Source: Escherichia coli (GTDB lineage Bacteria > Pseudomonadota > Gammaproteobacteria > Enterobacterales > Enterobacteriaceae). Taken from it: a stretch of 64,000 nt of DNA. The position numbers were made by a program, and so were the translations under genes. Below the pieces are notes generated by a model. That model ran no database searches. It saw only the letters and a program-made list of their open reading frames with translations, and had not been told where the DNA came from. Location: assembly GCF_050920415.1 (NCBI RefSeq), contig NZ_CP169309.1; one strand, 5' to 3'. Below, piece by piece: positions 6,400-47,352 of this stretch (position 1 is the first letter of the stretch; each line of letters starts with the position of its first letter).

Positions 6400-7875
<1,476 letters not shown>

Positions 7876-14707: not shown

Positions 14708-15001
14708 TTAGCCGTAGCGAAAATCAATACCGAAGGTGCCTGCGGGATATTGCCACTGTTCGAGAATCGTATTGCCACACAACACCCGACAGGTGCCGCA
14801 TTCGAGACAACCGGCGGAATCAAAATGTATGTTTCCTGCGTCATCCTGCTTATACAGTCCGGCAGGGCAAGCTTTCATTAATTTACGGAATTCATTGATA
14901 TCGGGATTTGCCGCCAGAATGATATGCGGGTGACCCTCATCAACATGGAATTTATTGACACCTAATTTGATGTCGACGTTAACCGTAGCGTTCTGGCTCA
15001 T
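14708..15001 (-). CDS. ydiT: Ferredoxin-like protein (FixX family)
   Basis: 97 aa with Cys cluster CLECGTCRVLC; start overlaps ydiS stop (ATGA). Confidence 0.9.
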   Translation of the reverse strand: MSQNATVNVDIKLGVNKFHVDEGHPHIILAANPDINEFRKLMKACPAGLYKQDDAGNIHFDSAGCLECGTCRVLCGNTILEQWQYPAGTFGIDFRYG

Positions 15002-27068: not shown

Positions 27069-27206
27069 CGTGTAATGGCTGCATGAAATAAACAATAAAA
27101 TATAAATAACATTATCAGCCTGCCGACGGCTTGAAGAGAGTCACAGTATCTTGTGCAACATTATTGGAAAGAGTGAGGGGGCGAGGTAGCGAAGCGGAAA
27201 AATGTT

Positions 27207-27312
27207 AAAAAAAAGCCCATCGTGGGAGATGGGCAAAGACTACACACAGCAATTCGTTGTTTCACTCAGGGGATTTCCATGCTTATAAATCAATATGTTG
27301 ATTTATAACCGT
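27207..27312 (-). ncRNA. rprA: RprA small regulatory RNA (Hfq-dependent activator of rpoS translation)
   Basis: Reverse complement reads ACGGTTATAAATCAACATATTGATTTATAAGCATGGAAATCCCCTGAGTGAAACAACGAATTGCTGTGTGTAGTCTTTGCCCATCTCCCACGATGGGCTTTTTTTT, recognised as RprA with its intrinsic terminator. Confidence 0.88.
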
Positions 27313-27497: not shown

Positions 27498-28610
27498 TTA
27501 CTTATTCGGTTTCTCGATTTCGCCAAGTTCTTCGAGAACTTCTTCCGGTTGGTCAGTCGGCGGTGGGACTTCTTCCACCCACGCGGCAAACAGACGCCAG
27601 GAAACGGCTAACAGAACCGGACCAATAAACAGACCGATCATCCCGAAAGCAATCAAACCACCAATAACGCCAGAGAGGATCAGGATCAGCGGTAAATCGG
27701 CACCCATGCGAATTAACATTGGGCGGATGACGTTATCCAGCGTGCCAACCACACCGCTCCACACTAACAATACCGTTCCCCAGGTGGTATCGCCGGTCCA
27801 GTAGAGCCAGATAATCGCCGGAATCAGTACCGGCAATGGGCCAAGCTGGACAAGGCAGGAGAGGATCATTAACACCGTGAGCAACGTTGCATAAGGTACG
27901 CCGGATACCGCGAGGCCGATACCGCCAAGCACTGCCTGTACTAACGCTGTCACCACAACACCCAGCGCCACTGCGCGGATAGCTTGTGCCGCTAGCAGCA
28001 CGGCGGCATCTCCACGAACGCCTGCCAGACGGGTAGCAAAATGGCGAATGCCTTGCGCCACTTGTTCACCGCGCCAATACAGCAGGGCGCTGAAGAGAAG
28101 CATCAGCGCACAATGCACCATAAAGCGCCCGATATGCGCCGCCTGCCCAACGAACCAGGTGGTGGTGGTGCCAATATAAGGACGGACTTTGGCCATGATC
28201 GCCGTGCCTCCCATATCCAGCAAGTTGTGCCAGCCTGCATACAGCTTCGTGCCAATCACCGGTATGGTATTAAGCCATGCCAGATCGGGTAACGTCATGT
28301 CACCGCTGGAAATGGCTTTAATCAGTGGACCGCTGCCATCGACAATACTGTTAACCAGCAAAGCAATAGGGATGATAAACACCATCACTAATAACAGCGT
28401 CATCACCAGAACGGCAAGAGAGCGGCGACCAAACATGATCTTTTGCAAACGTAACAATACCGGCCAGGTGGCGATAACCACCGTACCAGCCCATGCAAAG
28501 CCGAGAATAAAGGGTTGTACAATCCACAGACATGCCACAATCATGATGGCTAAAAACAGCACCGAAAGCAGAATTTGTGCGACATCCCTGGGCTGACGAA
28601 CATTTACCAT
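27498..28610 (-). CDS. ydiK: AI-2E (UPF0118) family inner-membrane transporter
   Basis: 370 aa, ATG at 28610, N-terminus MVNVRQPRDVAQILLSVLFLAIMIV. Confidence 0.9.
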   Translation of the reverse strand: MVNVRQPRDVAQILLSVLFLAIMIVACLWIVQPFILGFAWAGTVVIATWPVLLRLQKIMFGRRSLAVLVMTLLLVMVFIIPIALLVNSIVDGSGPLIKAISSGDMTLPDLAWLNTIPVIGTKLYAGWHNLLDMGGTAIMAKVRPYIGTTTTWFVGQAAHIGRFMVHCALMLLFSALLYWRGEQVAQGIRHFATRLAGVRGDAAVLLAAQAIRAVALGVVVTALVQAVLGGIGLAVSGVPYATLLTVLMILSCLVQLGPLPVLIPAIIWLYWTGDTTWGTVLLVWSGVVGTLDNVIRPMLIRMGADLPLILILSGVIGGLIAFGMIGLFIGPVLLAVSWRLFAAWVEEVPPPTDQPEEVLEELGEIEKPNK

Positions 28611-28998
28611 AACTACTTTTCACCTTTTTTGTGCGTCAAATCGTCGACGCGACGTGAACACGCGAAACTCACCTGCATAATGATGAGCAATTTCAGCGGT
28701 TTTTAACAGGCCGATTCTGCCCTTAATTCTGATGGGCGTGTTAGAAAAAAATGTGGTACAACAACTCAGGCAACACGCAAACGATTTACTCGTCGTATTT
28801 CAAATTGCATGTGCTGCGGCTACGTTCGTTCACCCCAGTCACTTACTTTTGTAAGCTCCTGGAGTTCACTCGCTTGCCGCCTTCCTGCAACTCGAAATCC
28901 ATAGAGTAAACAAACATCACCTTTCAGTGCGCTATTGCAGCCGCCTGAAAGAATAGTGTATCGACCTACATCACAGACCGCAGGAAAGGGTCAATATA

Positions 28999-31900
28999 AT
29001 GATTCCACAGATTTCCCAGGCACCCGGCGTCGTTCAACTGGTGCTTAATTTTTTGCAAGAGCTGGAGCAACAGGGTTTTACCGGTGATACGGCGACAAGT
29101 TATGCCGATCGTCTGACAATGTCGACCGACAACAGTATTTACCAACTTCTCCCCGATGCGGTGGTATTTCCGCGTTCAACCGCAGATGTGGCGCTGATCG
29201 CCCGTCTTGCCGCGCAGGAACGCTATTCTTCGCTGATCTTTACCCCCCGCGGCGGCGGCACCGGCACTAACGGTCAGGCGCTCAACCAGGGGATTATTGT
29301 TGATATGTCCCGCCATATGAACCGCATCATCGAAATTAACCCTGAAGAGGGCTGGGTGCGCGTTGAGGCCGGGGTGATAAAAGATCAACTCAATCAGTAC
29401 CTGAAACCGTTCGGCTACTTTTTTGCGCCGGAACTTTCGACCAGCAACCGGGCAACGCTCGGTGGGATGATCAATACCGATGCATCCGGTCAGGGATCGC
29501 TGGTCTATGGCAAAACGTCAGATCACGTACTTGGCGTACGCGCGGTGTTGTTGGGGGGCGATATTCTCGATACGCAACCTTTACCCGTCGAACTGGCGGA
29601 AACGCTGGGTAAATCCAATACTACAATCGGGCGAATTTATAACACGGTTTATCAACGTTGCCGTCAGCAACGTCAGTTAATTATCGACAAATTCCCCAAA
29701 CTTAACCGTTTTCTGACGGGTTACGATCTGCGTCATGTCTTTAACGATGAGATGACTGAGTTCGACCTGACGCGCATTCTGACGGGTTCAGAAGGGACGC
29801 TGGCCTTTATTACCGAAGCGCGGCTGGATATTACGCCCTTGCCTAAAGTGCGCCGTCTGGTGAACGTCAAATATGACTCTTTTGACTCCGCGCTGCGTAA
29901 CGCGCCGTTTATGGTTGAGGCGCGGGCGCTTTCGGTAGAGACGGTGGACTCAAAAGTGCTGAATCTGGCGCGGGAAGATATTGTCTGGCATTCCGTCAGC
30001 GAGTTGATTACCGATGTGCCTGACAAAGAAATGCTCGGGCTGAACATTGTGGAATTTGCTGGTGATGATGAGACGCTGATTGATGAGCGGGTAAATGCAC
30101 TCTGTGCGCGGTTGGATGAACTGATTGCCAGCCAACAGGCAGGTGTGATTGGCTGGCAGGTGTGCCGCGAACTGGCGGGTGTTGAACGTATCTATGCGAT
30201 GCGCAAAAAAGCCGTTGGTCTGCTTGGCAATGCCAAAGGTGCCGCTAAGCCAATTCCGTTTGCTGAGGATACCTGCGTACCGCCGGAACATCTGGCCGAT
30301 TATATTGCTGAATTTCGCGCGCTGCTCGACAGCCACGGCTTAAGCTACGGTATGTTCGGTCATGTCGACGCAGGCGTCTTACACGTCCGTCCGGCACTGG
30401 ATATGTGCGATCCACAACAAGAGATTTTGATGAAGCAAATCTCTGATGACGTGGTGGCGCTGACTGCGAAATACGGTGGTTTGTTGTGGGGCGAGCACGG
30501 CAAAGGTTTTCGTGCCGAATACAGCCCGGCGTTTTTCGGTGAGGAACTTTTTGCAGAACTGCGCAAAGTGAAAGCGGCATTTGACCCGCATAACCGACTC
30601 AACCCAGGGAAGATTTGCCCGCCAGAAGGTCTCGATGCGCCGATGATGAAAGTGGACGCGGTGAAGCGCGGTACATATGACCGGCAGATCCCCATTGCGG
30701 TACGCCAGCAGTGGCGCGGTGCGATGGAGTGTAACGGCAACGGTTTATGCTTCAACTTTGATGCCCGTAGTCCGATGTGTCCGTCGATGAAGATCACCCA
30801 GAACCGGATTCATTCACCGAAAGGGCGCGCAACGCTGGTGCGTGAATGGCTGCGCTTGTTGGCGGATCGCGGCATTGACCCACTCAAACTGGAACAAGAA
30901 CTGCCTGAATCCGGCGTCAGTTTGCGGACGTTAATTGCCCGCACGCGCAATAGCTGGCATGCGAATAAAGGCGAATATGACTTCTCACACGAAGTCAAAG
31001 AGGCGATGTCGGGCTGTCTGGCCTGTAAAGCTTGTTCGACCCAGTGCCCCATCAAAATTGATGTGCCGGAGTTTCGCTCTCGTTTCCTGCAGCTCTATCA
31101 CACACGTTATTTACGCCCATTACGTGACCATTTGGTGGCAACGGTTGAGAGCTACGCGCCGCTGATGGCACGCGCGCCGAAAACCTTTAACTTCTTCATT
31201 AACCAGCCGCTGGTGCGCAAACTCTCGGAAAAACATATCGGCATGGTTGATTTGCCACTGCTGTCGGTTCCCTCGCTGCAACAACAAATGGTGGGGCATC
31301 GCTCGGCAAACATGACGCTGGAACAGCTTGAAGTTCTCAATGCAGAGCAGAAATCGCGCACGGTGTTGGTGGTGCAGGACCCCTTTACCAGCTATTACGA
31401 TGCGCAAGTGGTGGCGGATTTTGTCCGTCTGGTCGAAAAATTAGGTTTCCAGCCCGTGTTACTGCCATTTTCGCCGAATGGCAAAGCCCAGCATATCAAA
31501 GGCTTTCTTAATCGTTTTGCGAAGACGGCGAAAAAAACGGCGGATTTTCTCAACCGAATGGCGAAATTGGGAATGCCAATGGTGGGCGTCGATCCAGCGC
31601 TGGTACTTTGTTATCGCGATGAATATAAACTGGCGCTGGGCGAGGAGCGTGGCGAGTTTAAGGTCTTACTGGCGAATGAATGGTTGGCAAGCATACTTGA
31701 GTCACAGCCAGTGGCTACAGTCAGCGGTGAATCATGGTATTTCTTTGGTCACTGTACCGAAGTTACCGCCTTGCCGGGCGCGCCAGCACAATGGGCGGCA
31801 ATATTTGCCCGTTTTGGCGCGAAACTGGAAAATGTCAGCGTGGGTTGCTGCGGCATGGCAGGGACTTACGGACATGAAGCGAAAAACCATAAAAATTCGC

Positions 31901-32055
31901 TCGGGATCTATGAGTTATCCTGGCATCAGGCGATGCAGCGACTGCCGCGTAATCGCTGTCTGGCGACCGGATATTCCTGTCGCAGCCAGGTAAAACGGGT
32001 TGAAGGCACGGGGGTACGCCATCCTGTGCAGGCTTTACTGGAGATTATTAAATGA
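28999..32055 (+). CDS. ydiJ: FAD-linked oxidoreductase with C-terminal Fe-S/CCG domains (D-2-hydroxyglutarate dehydrogenase, YdiJ)
   Basis: 1018 aa; FAD-binding PCMH-type region near N-terminus, Cys motifs (CLACKACSTQCP) mid-protein; stop overlaps menI start. Confidence 0.93.
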   Translation: MIPQISQAPGVVQLVLNFLQELEQQGFTGDTATSYADRLTMSTDNSIYQLLPDAVVFPRSTADVALIARLAAQERYSSLIFTPRGGGTGTNGQALNQGIIVDMSRHMNRIIEINPEEGWVRVEAGVIKDQLNQYLKPFGYFFAPELSTSNRATLGGMINTDASGQGSLVYGKTSDHVLGVRAVLLGGDILDTQPLPVELAETLGKSNTTIGRIYNTVYQRCRQQRQLIIDKFPKLNRFLTGYDLRHVFNDEMTEFDLTRILTGSEGTLAFITEARLDITPLPKVRRLVNVKYDSFDSALRNAPFMVEARALSVETVDSKVLNLAREDIVWHSVSELITDVPDKEMLGLNIVEFAGDDETLIDERVNALCARLDELIASQQAGVIGWQVCRELAGVERIYAMRKKAVGLLGNAKGAAKPIPFAEDTCVPPEHLADYIAEFRALLDSHGLSYGMFGHVDAGVLHVRPALDMCDPQQEILMKQISDDVVALTAKYGGLLWGEHGKGFRAEYSPAFFGEELFAELRKVKAAFDPHNRLNPGKICPPEGLDAPMMKVDAVKRGTYDRQIPIAVRQQWRGAMECNGNGLCFNFDARSPMCPSMKITQNRIHSPKGRATLVREWLRLLADRGIDPLKLEQELPESGVSLRTLIARTRNSWHANKGEYDFSHEVKEAMSGCLACKACSTQCPIKIDVPEFRSRFLQLYHTRYLRPLRDHLVATVESYAPLMARAPKTFNFFINQPLVRKLSEKHIGMVDLPLLSVPSLQQQMVGHRSANMTLEQLEVLNAEQKSRTVLVVQDPFTSYYDAQVVADFVRLVEKLGFQPVLLPFSPNGKAQHIKGFLNRFAKTAKKTADFLNRMAKLGMPMVGVDPALVLCYRDEYKLALGEERGEFKVLLANEWLASILESQPVATVSGESWYFFGHCTEVTALPGAPAQWAAIFARFGAKLENVSVGCCGMAGTYGHEAKNHKNSLGIYELSWHQAMQRLPRNRCLATGYSCRSQVKRVEGTGVRHPVQALLEIIK

Positions 32056-32462
32056 TATGGAAACGAAAAATCACCCTGGAAGCACTGAATGCAATGGGTG
32101 AAGGAAACATGGTGGGGTTGCTGGATATTCGCTTTGAACATATTAGTGATGACACCCTTGAAGCGACAATGCCAGTAGACTCGCGGACAAAGCAGCCTTT
32201 CGGGTTGCTGCATGGAGGGGCATCCGTGGTACTGGCCGAAAGTATCGGTTCCGTTGCCGGTTATTTATGTACCGAAGGTGAGCAAAAGGTGGTTGGTCTG
32301 GAAATCAATGCTAACCACGTCCGCTCGGTACGAGAAGGGCGGGTGCGCGGCGTATGCAAACCGTTGCATCTCGGTTCGCGTCACCAGGTCTGGCAGATTG
32401 AAATCTTCGATGAGAAAGGGCGTTTGTGCTGTTCGTCACGATTGACGACCGCTATTTTGTGA
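32052..32462 (+). CDS. menI: 1,4-dihydroxy-2-naphthoyl-CoA hydrolase (hotdog-fold thioesterase)
   Basis: 136 aa, N-terminus MIWKRKITLEALNAMGEGNMVG matches YdiI/MenI; ATGA overlap with ydiJ. Confidence 0.92.
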   Translation: MIWKRKITLEALNAMGEGNMVGLLDIRFEHISDDTLEATMPVDSRTKQPFGLLHGGASVVLAESIGSVAGYLCTEGEQKVVGLEINANHVRSVREGRVRGVCKPLHLGSRHQVWQIEIFDEKGRLCCSSRLTTAIL

Positions 32463-32561
32463 CGTTGTCACCAGAAAAGTGTGACGCATATTGCTTTTGG
32501 TCATTATCTGCACAGTAAACGGTGGTATACTGTGCAGGTCTTGTCTAAAAGCGAGGATGCT

Positions 32562-32750
32562 ATGTCTACTCAACTTGATCCCACCCAGCTGGCCATTGAA
32601 TTTTTACGTCGTGACCAGAGCAATCTTTCACCTGCCCAATATCTCAAACGTCTGAAACAACTAGAACTTGAATTCGCTGACTTGCTTACTCTCTCTTCTG
32701 CTGAATTAAAAGAAGAAATCTACTTTGCCTGGCGTTTGGGCGTGCATTGA
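32562..32750 (+). CDS. ydiH: Small protein YdiH
   Basis: 62 aa from ATG at 32562 (MSTQLDPTQLAIEFL); the ORF-track 5' extension is rejected. Confidence 0.7.
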   Translation: MSTQLDPTQLAIEFLRRDQSNLSPAQYLKRLKQLELEFADLLTLSSAELKEEIYFAWRLGVH

Positions 32751-32949
32751 TCCTGACGTAATGCCGCGAGTTCGCCAAATCGGCCTGGATTAATCTTCGT
32801 CCAGGTTCGAGGGCCTTCTTAATACTGCTTTTCTACCCGCCTGATAACGTTCAAAAATAATACAAATCGCAGTTTGTGCTAAAACAGCGGCTTAGCTTTA
32901 TGAGACTATTCTTATCGCCCCTTCAAGAGCTAAGCCACTGTGAGTGCCG

Positions 32950-33017
32950 GAGATAAGCGCCGGATGGGGTAGAAACCCTTAAGCCTGTGATGCACAGACT
33001 TAAGGGTTTTCTTATTT
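32950..33017 (+). ncRNA. rydB: Candidate RydB sRNA (boundaries approximate)
   Basis: Strong hairpin aacccttaagcctgtg...cacagacttaagggtt plus T-tract in the ydiH-sufA spacer, where rydB is expected; the RydB sequence itself was not recalled. Confidence 0.4.
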
Positions 33018-33103
33018 CTGAACGCTGCACTTTTTTACCTATCTCTTAAATAGTCATTTTCAATACAACTTTTTCTTTTTCATCTCAGCCTTAATGCTCC
33101 TTA

Positions 33104-35172: not shown

Positions 35173-35919
35173 ATGTTAAGTATTAAAGATTTACACGTCA
35201 GCGTGGAAGATAAAACTATCCTGCGCGGATTAAGCCTCGACGTTCGTCCCGGCGAAGTTCACGCCATTATGGGACCCAATGGTTCGGGGAAAAGTACCTT
35301 ATCGGCAACGCTTGCCGGACGCGAAGATTATGAAGTGACGGCTGGCACGGTTGAGTTTAAAGGCAAAGATTTGCTTGCGCTGTCGCCGGAAGAACGTGCA
35401 GGCGAAGGCATCTTTATGGCCTTCCAGTATCCGGTGGAAATACCCGGCGTCAGTAACCAGTTTTTCCTGCAAACGGCACTTAATGCGGTACGCAGCTATC
35501 GCGGCCAGGAAACGCTCGACCGCTTTGATTTTCAGGATTTGATGGAAGAGAAAATCGCTCTTCTGAAAATGCCGGAAGATTTATTAACGCGTTCGGTAAA
35601 CGTTGGTTTTTCCGGCGGCGAGAAAAAGCGCAACGATATTTTGCAAATGGCGGTGTTGGAACCGGAGTTATGCATTCTTGATGAGTCGGACTCCGGGCTG
35701 GATATTGACGCATTAAAAGTGGTTGCCGATGGCGTGAACTCGCTGCGTGACGGCAAGCGTTCATTCATCATTGTTACGCACTACCAACGCATTCTCGACT
35801 ACATCAAGCCTGATTACGTCCATGTGCTGTATCAGGGACGAATTGTGAAATCCGGCGATTTCACGTTGGTCAAACAACTGGAGGAGCAGGGTTATGGCTG
35901 GCTTACCGAACAGCAGTAA
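35173..35919 (+). CDS. sufC: Fe-S cluster assembly ATPase SufC
   Basis: 248 aa, Walker A GPNGSGKST; 3' end overlaps sufD by 26 nt. Confidence 0.97.
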   Translation: MLSIKDLHVSVEDKTILRGLSLDVRPGEVHAIMGPNGSGKSTLSATLAGREDYEVTAGTVEFKGKDLLALSPEERAGEGIFMAFQYPVEIPGVSNQFFLQTALNAVRSYRGQETLDRFDFQDLMEEKIALLKMPEDLLTRSVNVGFSGGEKKRNDILQMAVLEPELCILDESDSGLDIDALKVVADGVNSLRDGKRSFIIVTHYQRILDYIKPDYVHVLYQGRIVKSGDFTLVKQLEEQGYGWLTEQQ

Positions 35920-37165
35920 CGCGCTGCAACAGTGGCATCACTTGTTTGAAGCCGAGGGTGCAAAACGCTCCCCGCAAGCACAGCAGCATTTACAACAATT
36001 GCTGCGTACCGGACTGCCGACACGTAAACATGAAAACTGGAAATATACGCCGCTGGAAGGGCTGACCAATAGCCAGTTTGTCAGTATTGCGGGGGAGATA
36101 TCCCCACAGCAGCGTGATGCCTTAGCGTTAACGTTAGACGCCGTGCGGCTGGTGTTTGTCGATGGACGTTACGTGCCCGCGCTGAGCGATGCAACTGAAG
36201 GCAGCGGATATGAAGTGAGCATTAACGATGACCGCCAGGGGTTACCCGACGCTATTCAGACGGAAGTGTTTCTGCATTTGACGGAAAGCCTGGCGCAAAG
36301 CGTGACGCATATCGCCGTGAAGCGCGGTCAACGACCGGCAAAGCCATTGCTGTTAATGCATATTACCCAGGGCGTGGCAGGTGAAGAGGTGAACACTGCC
36401 CATTACCGACATCATCTGGATCTGGCGGAAGGTGCCGAAGCGACGGTGATCGAACATTTTGTCAGCCTTAATGATGCTCGTCATTTCACCGGAGCGCGCT
36501 TTACCATCAATGTCGCAGCGAACGCCCACTTGCAGCATATCAAGCTGGCGTTTGAAAACCCGGTCAGTCACCACTTTGCCCATAACGATTTGTTGCTGGC
36601 TGACGATGCTACCGCATTTAGCCACAGTTTCCTGCTTGGTGGCGCAGTGTTACGACACAACACCAGTACGCAACTCAATGGCGAAAACAGCACGCTGCGG
36701 ATCAATAGTCTGGTGATGCCGGTGAAAAACGAGGTGTGTGATACCCGTACCTGGCTGGAACACAATAAAGGTTTTTGTAACAGCCGACAGTTGCACAAAA
36801 CTATCGTCAGCGATAAAGGCCGCGCGGTATTTAACGGTTTGATCAACGTCGCGCAGCACGCCATCAAAACGGATGGTCAGATGACCAACAATAATCTGCT
36901 GATGGGCAAACTGGCAGAAGTGGATACGAAACCGCAGCTGGAAATCTATGCAGATGATGTGAAATGCAGCCACGGCGCGACGGTGGGGCGTATTGATGAT
37001 GAACAGATGTTCTATCTGCGCTCGCGTGGGATCAATCAGCAGGATGCCCAGCAGATGATCATTTACGCCTTTGCTGCCGAACTGACGGAAGCACTGCGTG
37101 ATGAGGGGCTTAAACAGCAGGTGCTGGCCCGAATCGGTCAACGACTGCCAGGAGGTGCAAGATGA
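35894..37165 (+). CDS. sufD: Fe-S cluster assembly protein SufD
   Basis: 423 aa, ATG 35894; stop overlaps sufS start (ATGA). Confidence 0.95.
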
Positions 37166-46683: not shown

Positions 46684-47352
46684 ATGTCCTTCACTCGACG
46701 CAAATTTGTTCTGGGGATGGGAACAGTAATCTTTTTTACTGGTTCAGCGTCTTCTCTGTTAGCGAACACGAGGCAAGAAAAGGAAGTTCGGTATGCCATG
46801 ATTCATGACGAGTCACGGTGCAATGGCTGTAATATTTGCGCCCGCGCATGCCGTAAAACCAATCATGTCCCCGCTCAGGGAAGCCGTTTATCGATAGCAC
46901 ACATACCGGTCACCGATAACGACAACGAAACGCAGTATCACTTTTTTCGCCAGTCATGCCAGCACTGTGAAGATGCTCCTTGCATCGACGTTTGCCCAAC
47001 AGGAGCGTCATGGCGTGATATGCAGGGGATCGTGCGGGTAGAAAAATCGCAGTGCATCGGCTGCAGTTATTGCATTGGCGCTTGCCCGTACCAGGTTCGC
47101 TACCTTAACCCTGTCACTAAAGTTGCAGATAAATGTGATTTCTGCGCTGAGTCCCGACTGGCAAAAGGCTTTCCGCCCATTTGCGTCAGCGCCTGTCCGG
47201 AACACGCATTGATCTTTGGTCGCGAAGATAGCCCAGAAATTCAGGCGTGGTTGCAGGAAAATAAATACTATCAATATCAGCTACCTGGTGCCGGGAAACC
47301 GCATCTGTATCGCCGATTCGGTCAACATTTGATTAAAAAGGAAAATGTATGA
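46684..47352 (+). CDS. ydhX: Tat-signal 4Fe-4S ferredoxin-like protein
   Basis: 222 aa from ATG 46684; twin-arginine motif TRRKFVLG; four Cys clusters; stop overlaps ydhU start (ATGA). Confidence 0.85.
   Translation: MSFTRRKFVLGMGTVIFFTGSASSLLANTRQEKEVRYAMIHDESRCNGCNICARACRKTNHVPAQGSRLSIAHIPVTDNDNETQYHFFRQSCQHCEDAPCIDVCPTGASWRDMQGIVRVEKSQCIGCSYCIGACPYQVRYLNPVTKVADKCDFCAESRLAKGFPPICVSACPEHALIFGREDSPEIQAWLQENKYYQYQLPGAGKPHLYRRFGQHLIKKENV

Follow-up and report, generated by a model that had tools for sequence, protein, structure and literature searches.

Does the overlap of a stop and a start codon between ydiJ and menI tie two enzymes of different pathways together, or is it merely the way in which two neighbouring genes of an ordinary operon meet? 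The question was raised by a stretch of 64,000 nucleotides of Escherichia coli DNA (RefSeq assembly GCF_050920415.1, contig NZ_CP169309.1; hereafter the window), in which ydiJ, encoding a flavin adenine dinucleotide (FAD)/iron-sulfur (Fe-S) dehydrogenase, is directly followed by menI, encoding a thioesterase of the menaquinone pathway. From the overlap, a first-pass annotation of the window had derived a coordinated dosage of the two proteins and possibly a link between 2-hydroxyacid oxidation and quinone metabolism. The reading that we prefer, with a probability of about 0.8, is that ydiJ and menI are the two genes of an ordinary operon (ydiJI) belonging to the E. coli core genome. According to this reading, menI, lacking a recognisable promoter, would be read from the ydiJ transcript; ribosomes finishing ydiJ would re-initiate at the menI start (termination-reinitiation), and free 30S subunits could probably bind the same start directly as well. 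The expected outcome would be a common transcriptional control of the two genes, not necessarily a fixed 1:1 ratio of their proteins.

The ydiJ/menI junction and its two genes

The ATGA in which the ydiJ stop and the menI start overlap was found by direct reading, and again by a script re-check, exactly where the first-pass annotation had placed it, bases 32050-32059 being AAATGATATG. The two genes lie on the same strand and share 4 nt, and a Shine-Dalgarno (SD)-like GGAG is located within ydiJ, suitably spaced from the menI start (Table 1), spelled by the Leu-Glu codons CTG GAG in the C-terminal ALLEIIK of YdiJ. The anatomy of the overlap, the identities of the two genes and the conservation of the junction with its SD sequence are matters of direct observation. 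We consider the menI start at 32052 to be correct because the N-terminus, MIW(K/R)R, was kept across 14 aligned junctions, the YdiI chains in PDB match MenI residues 1-136, and the next ATG, at 32057, is out of frame.

Junctions of this kind are frequent. ATGA was present at four of the 41 co-directional adjacent pairs in the window (ydiS/ydiT, ydiJ/menI, sufD/sufS and ydhX/phsC), and the -4 ATGA arrangement has been described as the commonest configuration of unidirectional pairs in E. coli (707/2,987 pairs between -8 and +6; Huber et al. 2023, PMC10666635). The supplement of that study contains the pair itself, b1687 ydiJ / b1686 menI, as entry NGHB#1655 with a distance of -4. Since -4 is the commonest type of bacterial operon junction and the pair has already been catalogued, the ydiJ/menI junction is an ordinary operon junction that was known before.

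The identification of ydiJ as the gene for an FAD/Fe-S D-2-hydroxyglutarate (D-2-HG) dehydrogenase was borne out by two agreeing lines, the NCBIfam equivalog NF049975 'D-2-hydroxyglutarate dehydrogenase YdiJ' (1728 bits against a cutoff of 1350, residues 1-1016) and the Pfam domains FAD_binding_4, FAD-oxidase_C and Fer4_8 (4Fe-4S dicluster). The equivalog match is full-length and the protein possesses both an FAD domain like that of GlcD and an Fe-S domain like that of GlpC, with conserved cysteines at residues 578, 584, 594, 673, 676, 679 and 683. The YdiJ of the window is 99% identical to the common E. coli YdiJ clusters. Oxidation of D-2-HG has been shown for the YdiJ orthologue of E. coli MG1655/W3110 (PMC9504171; PMC12297413), and the Pseudomonas homologue PP4493 is also a characterised enzyme (PMC12297413). 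By orthology with the assayed E. coli enzyme, the YdiJ of the window would be expected to have D-2-HG dehydrogenase activity.

For menI, the assignment to a hotdog thioesterase of the menaquinone pathway likewise held. MenI scored 307 bits with NF007631, the equivalog of 1,4-dihydroxy-2-naphthoyl-coenzyme A (DHNA-CoA) hydrolase (cutoff 226), and 197 bits with the EntH model NF007607, under the cutoff of 237 for that model, and YdiI entries were its best PDB matches (4K49, 1SBK and 1VH5, E ~1e-87). At the respective positions its translation has Gln48, His54, Glu63 and His89, which we take from structural work on YdiI/YbdB to be the catalytic residues, together with Val68, presumably the residue of the YdiI type. 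The role of YdiI as a DHNA-CoA thioesterase is summarised in a preprint on the MenI of Listeria. As for dosage, MenI makes up ~6e-5 of the proteome mass and is near constant between conditions (Mori 2021 supplement), while neither ydiJ nor menI appears in the Burkhardt 2017 or kasugamycin-translatome supplements.

Conservation of the pair and of the internal Shine-Dalgarno sequence

A 60-nt probe spanning the junction was present in 5419 of the 5426 complete E. coli genomes; in 2416 it was matched exactly, the remaining copies had no more than 3 mismatches, and the annotation of the most divergent E. coli copies that we examined still contained the 4-nt overlap. The junction is thus core to E. 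coli. For a wider view, 79 loci of the ydiJ family, with 37-96% protein identity, were drawn from a collection with one genome per species. In 19 of them, a MenI homologue came 3' of ydiJ in the same orientation; the 19 comprised all sampled Enterobacterales (Escherichia, Citrobacter, Enterobacter, Superficieibacter, Photorhabdus, Providencia, Acerihabitans, Rahnella and an uncultured member), three of the four Pasteurellaceae, Aeromonas, Psychromonas and one marine metagenome-assembled genome (MAG) with a degraded-looking copy. No menI followed ydiJ in Vibrio, Shewanella, Pseudoalteromonas, Pseudomonas, Halomonas, Methylobacterium, Orbaceae or the remainder of the 79 loci.

The geometry of the 19 junctions was found to vary: 1) ATGA (-4) in 10 loci, from Enterobacteriaceae, Photorhabdus and Providencia, 2) TAATG (-1) in Acerihabitans, 3) spacers of +1 to +63 nt in five loci, each with its own SD sequence in the spacer, and 4) distances of 518 nt in the marine MAG, measured to a menI fragment that is likely degraded, 614 nt in Aeromonas and 834 nt in Rodentibacter. 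When 14 enterobacterial junctions were aligned, ATGA was invariant in 13, the exception being the TAATG of Acerihabitans. Because of this variation, the pairing of ydiJ with menI appears to be old, and the tight overlap appears to be limited to part of the Enterobacterales.

Careful examination of the same alignment revealed that TGGA, within the internal SD region, was invariant, while the adjacent third-codon positions were free to vary. The last codon of YdiJ also varied (AAA for Lys, GGA for Gly, CCA for Pro, GAA for Glu and CAA for Gln), always ending in the A of the menI ATG. To see how far the spelling of the SD sequence goes with the position of menI, the 12 loci with tight junctions (genes at -4, -1 or +1) were compared with 15 other loci encoding Leu-Glu, five of them with a spacer before menI and 10 without menI. 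Leu-Glu was spelled as GGAG at 11 of the 12 tight junctions vs two of the 15 other loci, which mostly used TTAGAA, CTGGAA, CTTGAA and similar (Fisher exact p = 7e-5, with no phylogenetic correction). Since synonymous codons keep GGAG where the genes abut, the internal ribosome-binding site of menI seems to be under selection; the test is suggestive only, being uncorrected for shared ancestry or for base composition (the Pasteurellaceae are AT-rich).

Several loci differ from E. coli in what lies between or behind the two genes. In Aeromonas caviae (L038, 7055-7672), the 614-nt spacer is devoid of any credible open reading frame (ORF) and contains, at 7081-7107 and 7562-7585, two strong terminator-like hairpins, and in Rodentibacter (L036, 7269-7706) a DUF559 endonuclease-like gene has been inserted between ydiJ and menI. 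In the marine gammaproteobacterial MAG (L013, 7381-7650), a fragment was all that was found ~520 nt past ydiJ; it is similar to the C-terminal half of MenI (...PLHLGATTQVWQIDIHDEKG) and could be a decaying menI or the product of an assembly frameshift. It was also noticed that the ferrochelatase gene hemH follows menI on the same strand, giving the order ydiJ-menI-hemH, in Haemophilus haemolyticus (L012, 7098-8482), where menI and hemH overlap by 4 nt, and in Rodentibacter rarus (L036, 7817-9303). The idea that some other hotdog thioesterase might stand downstream of ydiJ elsewhere was rejected, as the small downstream ORFs belong to unrelated families, namely a PEMT/ICMT-like methyltransferase (Vibrio, Succinatimonas), DUF1285 (Shewanella), an RraA-like protein (Marinobacterium) and DUF4826 (Glaciecola). 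The gene for the small membrane PEMT/ICMT-like methyltransferase is a recurring neighbour with no known connection to ydiJ, lying directly 3' of it on the same strand in Vibrio (L011, L027, L046 and L074, ~7030-7600) and in a Succinatimonas MAG (L064, 3292-3762).

Translation of menI and the proposed link to quinone metabolism

Because the menI AUG overlaps the ydiJ UGA and the GGAG sits in the end of ydiJ, terminating ydiJ ribosomes would be well placed to re-initiate at menI. With dual reporters, coupling was observed in four of five native E. coli -4 pairs and was usually SD-dependent (Huber et al. 2019, PMC6728339), and coupling drops steeply with distance, being nearly gone at ~20 nt (PMC10666635). 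By analogy, translational coupling of ydiJ to menI is plausible. Several points nevertheless weigh against this part of the reading and against the single transcript that it presupposes: 1) the predicted opening energy of the menI start region (-16 to +10), 3.35 kcal/mol, was the lowest of the 13 sites in the window, the others ranging from 4.6 to 11.8, 2) the junction folded no better than its shuffles (z = -1.18), which favours independent initiation, 3) in the reporter study the -4 pair bioBF initiated de novo (Huber et al. 2019, PMC6728339), and 4) the co-transcription of ydiJ and menI, which we infer, is based on a consensus scan of a simple kind and on one table from the literature. An occluding RNA structure that would enforce coupling was considered as a candidate and rejected for this junction on the same fold and opening values; Huber et al. 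2019 (PMC6728339) hypothesised that it is local structure which keeps coupled sites from initiating de novo. Since the menI start is A/U-rich and unstructured, direct entry of 30S subunits is probable there. With the start region predicted to be so open, menI may be initiated independently, and the overlap does not imply a fixed ratio of the two proteins; the coordinated dosage of the first-pass annotation, taken in this sense, was therefore not retained.

Carried to its end, the same evidence would make the overlap a mere result of compact packing, with menI translated essentially by de novo binding of 30S subunits and the dosage of the two proteins untied, although the genes would still be co-transcribed. 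For such an arrangement speak the start region, the most open of the 13 sites and free of significant occluding structure, the GGAG at the canonical spacing of 8 nt, and the precedent of bioBF. So do the relatives (Haemophilus, Rahnella and Psychromonas) in which menI begins +11 to +63 nt after ydiJ and has an SD of its own in the spacer, given that coupling is nearly abolished at ~20 nt. The coupling of four of the five native -4 pairs argues in the opposite direction, and so does the strict retention of -4 in Enterobacteriaceae and Morganellaceae, where the final codon of ydiJ is nonetheless free to change. We regard exclusive de novo initiation as possible but rather doubtful, and prefer re-initiation by ydiJ ribosomes with probable direct entry beside it. 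A practical point follows for studies of D-2-HG, in which full deletion or marker replacement of ydiJ may change the expression of MenI, through polarity or through lost coupling. As ydiJ deletions are possibly polar on menI, the menaquinone and D-2-HG phenotypes of ydiJ mutants need non-polar alleles.

The earlier interpretation thus stands in part: the gene identities and the ATGA overlap hold, but the step from them to 2-hydroxyacid oxidation being functionally linked with quinone metabolism is unsupported. Nothing that we found speaks for this step: overlaps of -4 are generic, adjacency is limited to a clade and the literature is silent. Adjacency was confined to 19 of the 79 loci, all in one gammaproteobacterial clade with none in Vibrio or Shewanella, and no pathway or complex shared by the two proteins was found in the literature, where searches by name gave only gene lists and two published studies of YdiJ are without menI or menaquinone. 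We infer that a metabolic link between ydiJ and menI is absent.

The linkage would be functional if YdiJ delivered electrons to the (demethyl)menaquinone pool, which needs MenI for its synthesis, if it served the supply or protection of the 2-oxoglutarate-dependent MenD, or if the two proteins were physically associated. The adjacency has been kept across Enterobacterales, Pasteurellaceae, Aeromonas and Psychromonas, all of them facultative anaerobes containing menaquinone or demethylmenaquinone, and hemH, another gene for a respiratory cofactor, comes next after menI in Haemophilus and Rodentibacter. It is, however, missing in Vibrio and Shewanella, which also make menaquinone, as well as in Orbaceae and one Haemophilus locus, unrelated genes following ydiJ there. 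YdiJ homologues are moreover common in the ubiquinone-only Pseudomonas and widespread in other taxa with no menI nearby, and in Aeromonas the two terminator-like hairpins appear to separate ydiJ from menI. The only bridge between the pathways is the suggestion, made in a 2025 study, that the GlpC domain of YdiJ may permit quinone to serve directly as electron acceptor (PMC12297413). As to physical association, genes for subunits of complexes show an excess of short overlaps (PMC10666635), but YdiJ works alone, being active as a homotetramer (PMC9504171), the pair was flagged 'CMPLX not' (Huber et al. 2023, PMC10666635), and no paper was found that joins both genes. Two of five distant YdiJ homologues have a polyprenyl synthase gene or UbiE/UbiB as neighbours. 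When the 79 loci were screened for homologues of all three, a single UbiB-like gene (L034) was obtained, by which a systematic association of YdiJ with quinone-biosynthesis genes was rejected; because this was the only such match, we consider the neighbours of the two distant homologues a coincidence. Altogether, a functional linkage seems improbable, and the ordinary operon remains the preferred explanation.

In its sharpest form, YdiJ would be a D-2-HG:(demethyl)menaquinone oxidoreductase with its expression tied to the making of its acceptor, or MenI would have a second substrate in 2-HG/2-oxoglutarate metabolism; both are long shots. If true, YdiJ as a menaquinone-linked enzyme would join the disposal of D-2-HG, a by-product of SerA, to anaerobic respiration, and the conserved menaquinone-gene neighbourhood is a hint, no more, at naphthoquinones as electron acceptors of YdiJ. 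As an ordinary junction the pair matters little, and the additions made here are modest: the phylogenetic extent of the pair, codon-level evidence for a kept SD sequence, and the caution about polarity of ydiJ deletions.

The distant homologues mentioned above are metagenomic and have 34-35% identity to YdiJ; one (L084, 1823-2749, - strand) adjoins the polyprenyl synthase gene and another (L088, 6335-8604, - strand) adjoins UbiB and UbiE. A third (L085, 1-2958, + strand) lies directly 3' of a set of genes for 2-oxoacid dehydrogenase E1/E2.

Transcription unit, surrounding locus and known systems

Promoters and terminators were searched for by a simple consensus scan. Between ydiJ and menI no promoter-like or terminator-like site was found, and upstream of ydiJ no convincing sigma-70 match was obtained. 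The first + strand promoter-like site past the pair is that of ydiH, the hexamers of which, TTGTCA/CATATT, are listed for this gene in a compilation that names the neighbouring unit 'ydiJI' (Shimada et al. 2014, PMC3946193). The weak hairpin at the 3' end of menI may end the ydiJ-menI transcript; this is uncertain, terminator-like sites of its quality being no more numerous in the region than in shuffles. That menI is instead driven by its own promoter in the 3' part of ydiJ, so that the two genes would be largely independent transcription units despite their overlap, is unlikely: internal promoters are common in E. coli, the scan is crude, and Aeromonas and Rodentibacter must express menI without direct abutment to ydiJ, but not one sigma-70-like site at the scan threshold was present on the + strand of 28500-32460, neither inside ydiJ nor at the junction, and 'ydiJI' was tabulated as one unit by Shimada et al.

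Gene coordinates and names (Table 1) were taken from the RefSeq annotation of a 100%-identical segment of 4.7 kb in E. coli MFDS1022581 (NZ_CP169399.1) and transferred to the window. The block ydiK-ydiJ-menI-ydiH is bracketed by the genes of two small RNAs (sRNAs), RprA and rydB. In the spacer between ydiK and ydiJ, an imperfect palindrome resembling the enterobacterial repetitive intergenic consensus (ERIC) or intergenic repeat unit (IRU) was found 90-215 nt 5' of the ydiJ start, and it may belong to the ydiJ 5' leader. The ERIC2 primer sequence is found at 28827-28848 (- strand) with a single mismatch, 0 such matches being expected by chance.

Table 1. Positions in the window of the two genes, their junction, neighbouring features and further overlaps
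Feature	Coordinates	Strand	Basis or remark
btuE/btuD 1-nt overlap	4125	+	
ydiS/ydiT ATGA overlap	14998-15001	-	
RprA sRNA gene	27205-27312	-	Rfam, above gathering threshold
ydiK	27498-28610	-	RefSeq annotation of NZ_CP169399.1
ERIC/IRU-like imperfect palindrome, ydiK-ydiJ intergenic	28785-28910	.	inverted arms 28785-28809 / 28886-28910
ydiJ coding sequence, 1018 aa, upstream gene of the pair	28999-32055	+	ORF list and RefSeq annotation of NZ_CP169399.1
SD-like GGAG for menI, inside ydiJ	32040-32043	+	8-nt spacer to ATG
ATGA stop/start overlap, 4 nt (menI ATG 32052-32054; ydiJ TGA 32053-32055)	32052-32055	+	direct reading and script
menI coding sequence, 136 aa, downstream gene of the pair	32052-32462	+	ORF list and RefSeq annotation of NZ_CP169399.1
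Weak terminator-like hairpin, menI 3' end	32433-32448	+	6-bp stem, then T-rich CCGCTATTTT
Promoter-like TTGTCA-16-CATATT for ydiH	32465-32492	+	scan; marks the downstream boundary of the two-gene unit
ydiH	32562-32750	+	RefSeq annotation of NZ_CP169399.1; sufABCDSE beyond
rydB sRNA gene	32917-32977	+	Rfam, above gathering threshold
sufC/sufD 26-nt overlap	35894-35919	+	
sufD/sufS ATGA overlap	37162-37165	+	
ydhX/phsC ATGA overlap	47349-47352	+	

The segment 28600-33300 (4.7 kb) had a match of at least 99% identity in one of the 5426 complete E. coli genomes and of 95-99% in 5420, the best match in the latter band being 98.4% over the segment among the matches listed. Mismatches to NZ_CP098223.1 were spaced fairly evenly along 16.7 kb, with peaks at 32600-33100 (the ydiH-rydB spacer) and 36100-36600 (sufD). 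This even spread suggests a sparsely sampled lineage and not a local import.

Among known systems, hyfHI, astDB, ydbH/ynbE as well as menDH (Huber et al. 2019, PMC6728339) resemble ydiJ/menI in being co-directional, with an ATGA overlap and an SD sequence inside the upstream gene. They differ in that their coupling was tested with reporters, whereas ydiJ/menI is known here from its sequence and has a start predicted to be unusually open; in addition, YdiJ and MenI are not known to belong to a common complex (Huber et al. 2023 list). The bioB/bioF pair shares the -4 overlap within a biosynthetic operon, and its own feature is uncoupled, de novo initiation in the reporter (PMC6728339). The menI paralogue entH (ybdB) encodes a thioesterase with the hotdog fold, from the subfamily of MenI (PDB 4K4C, E = 3e-51), and is, like menI, the distal gene of its operon. 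It stands at the end of the enterobactin operon, among the genes of its own pathway, whereas menI follows the gene for an enzyme of another pathway and lies at a distance from the remaining men genes. The closest counterpart is the ydiJ/menI ('ydiJI') of E. coli K-12, which is the same locus with the same -4 overlap and the same neighbours, ydiK, ydiH, rydB and sufA; the strain of the window is ~1.6% divergent over the 4.7 kb from all but one complete E. coli genome, and the junction is unaffected by this divergence.

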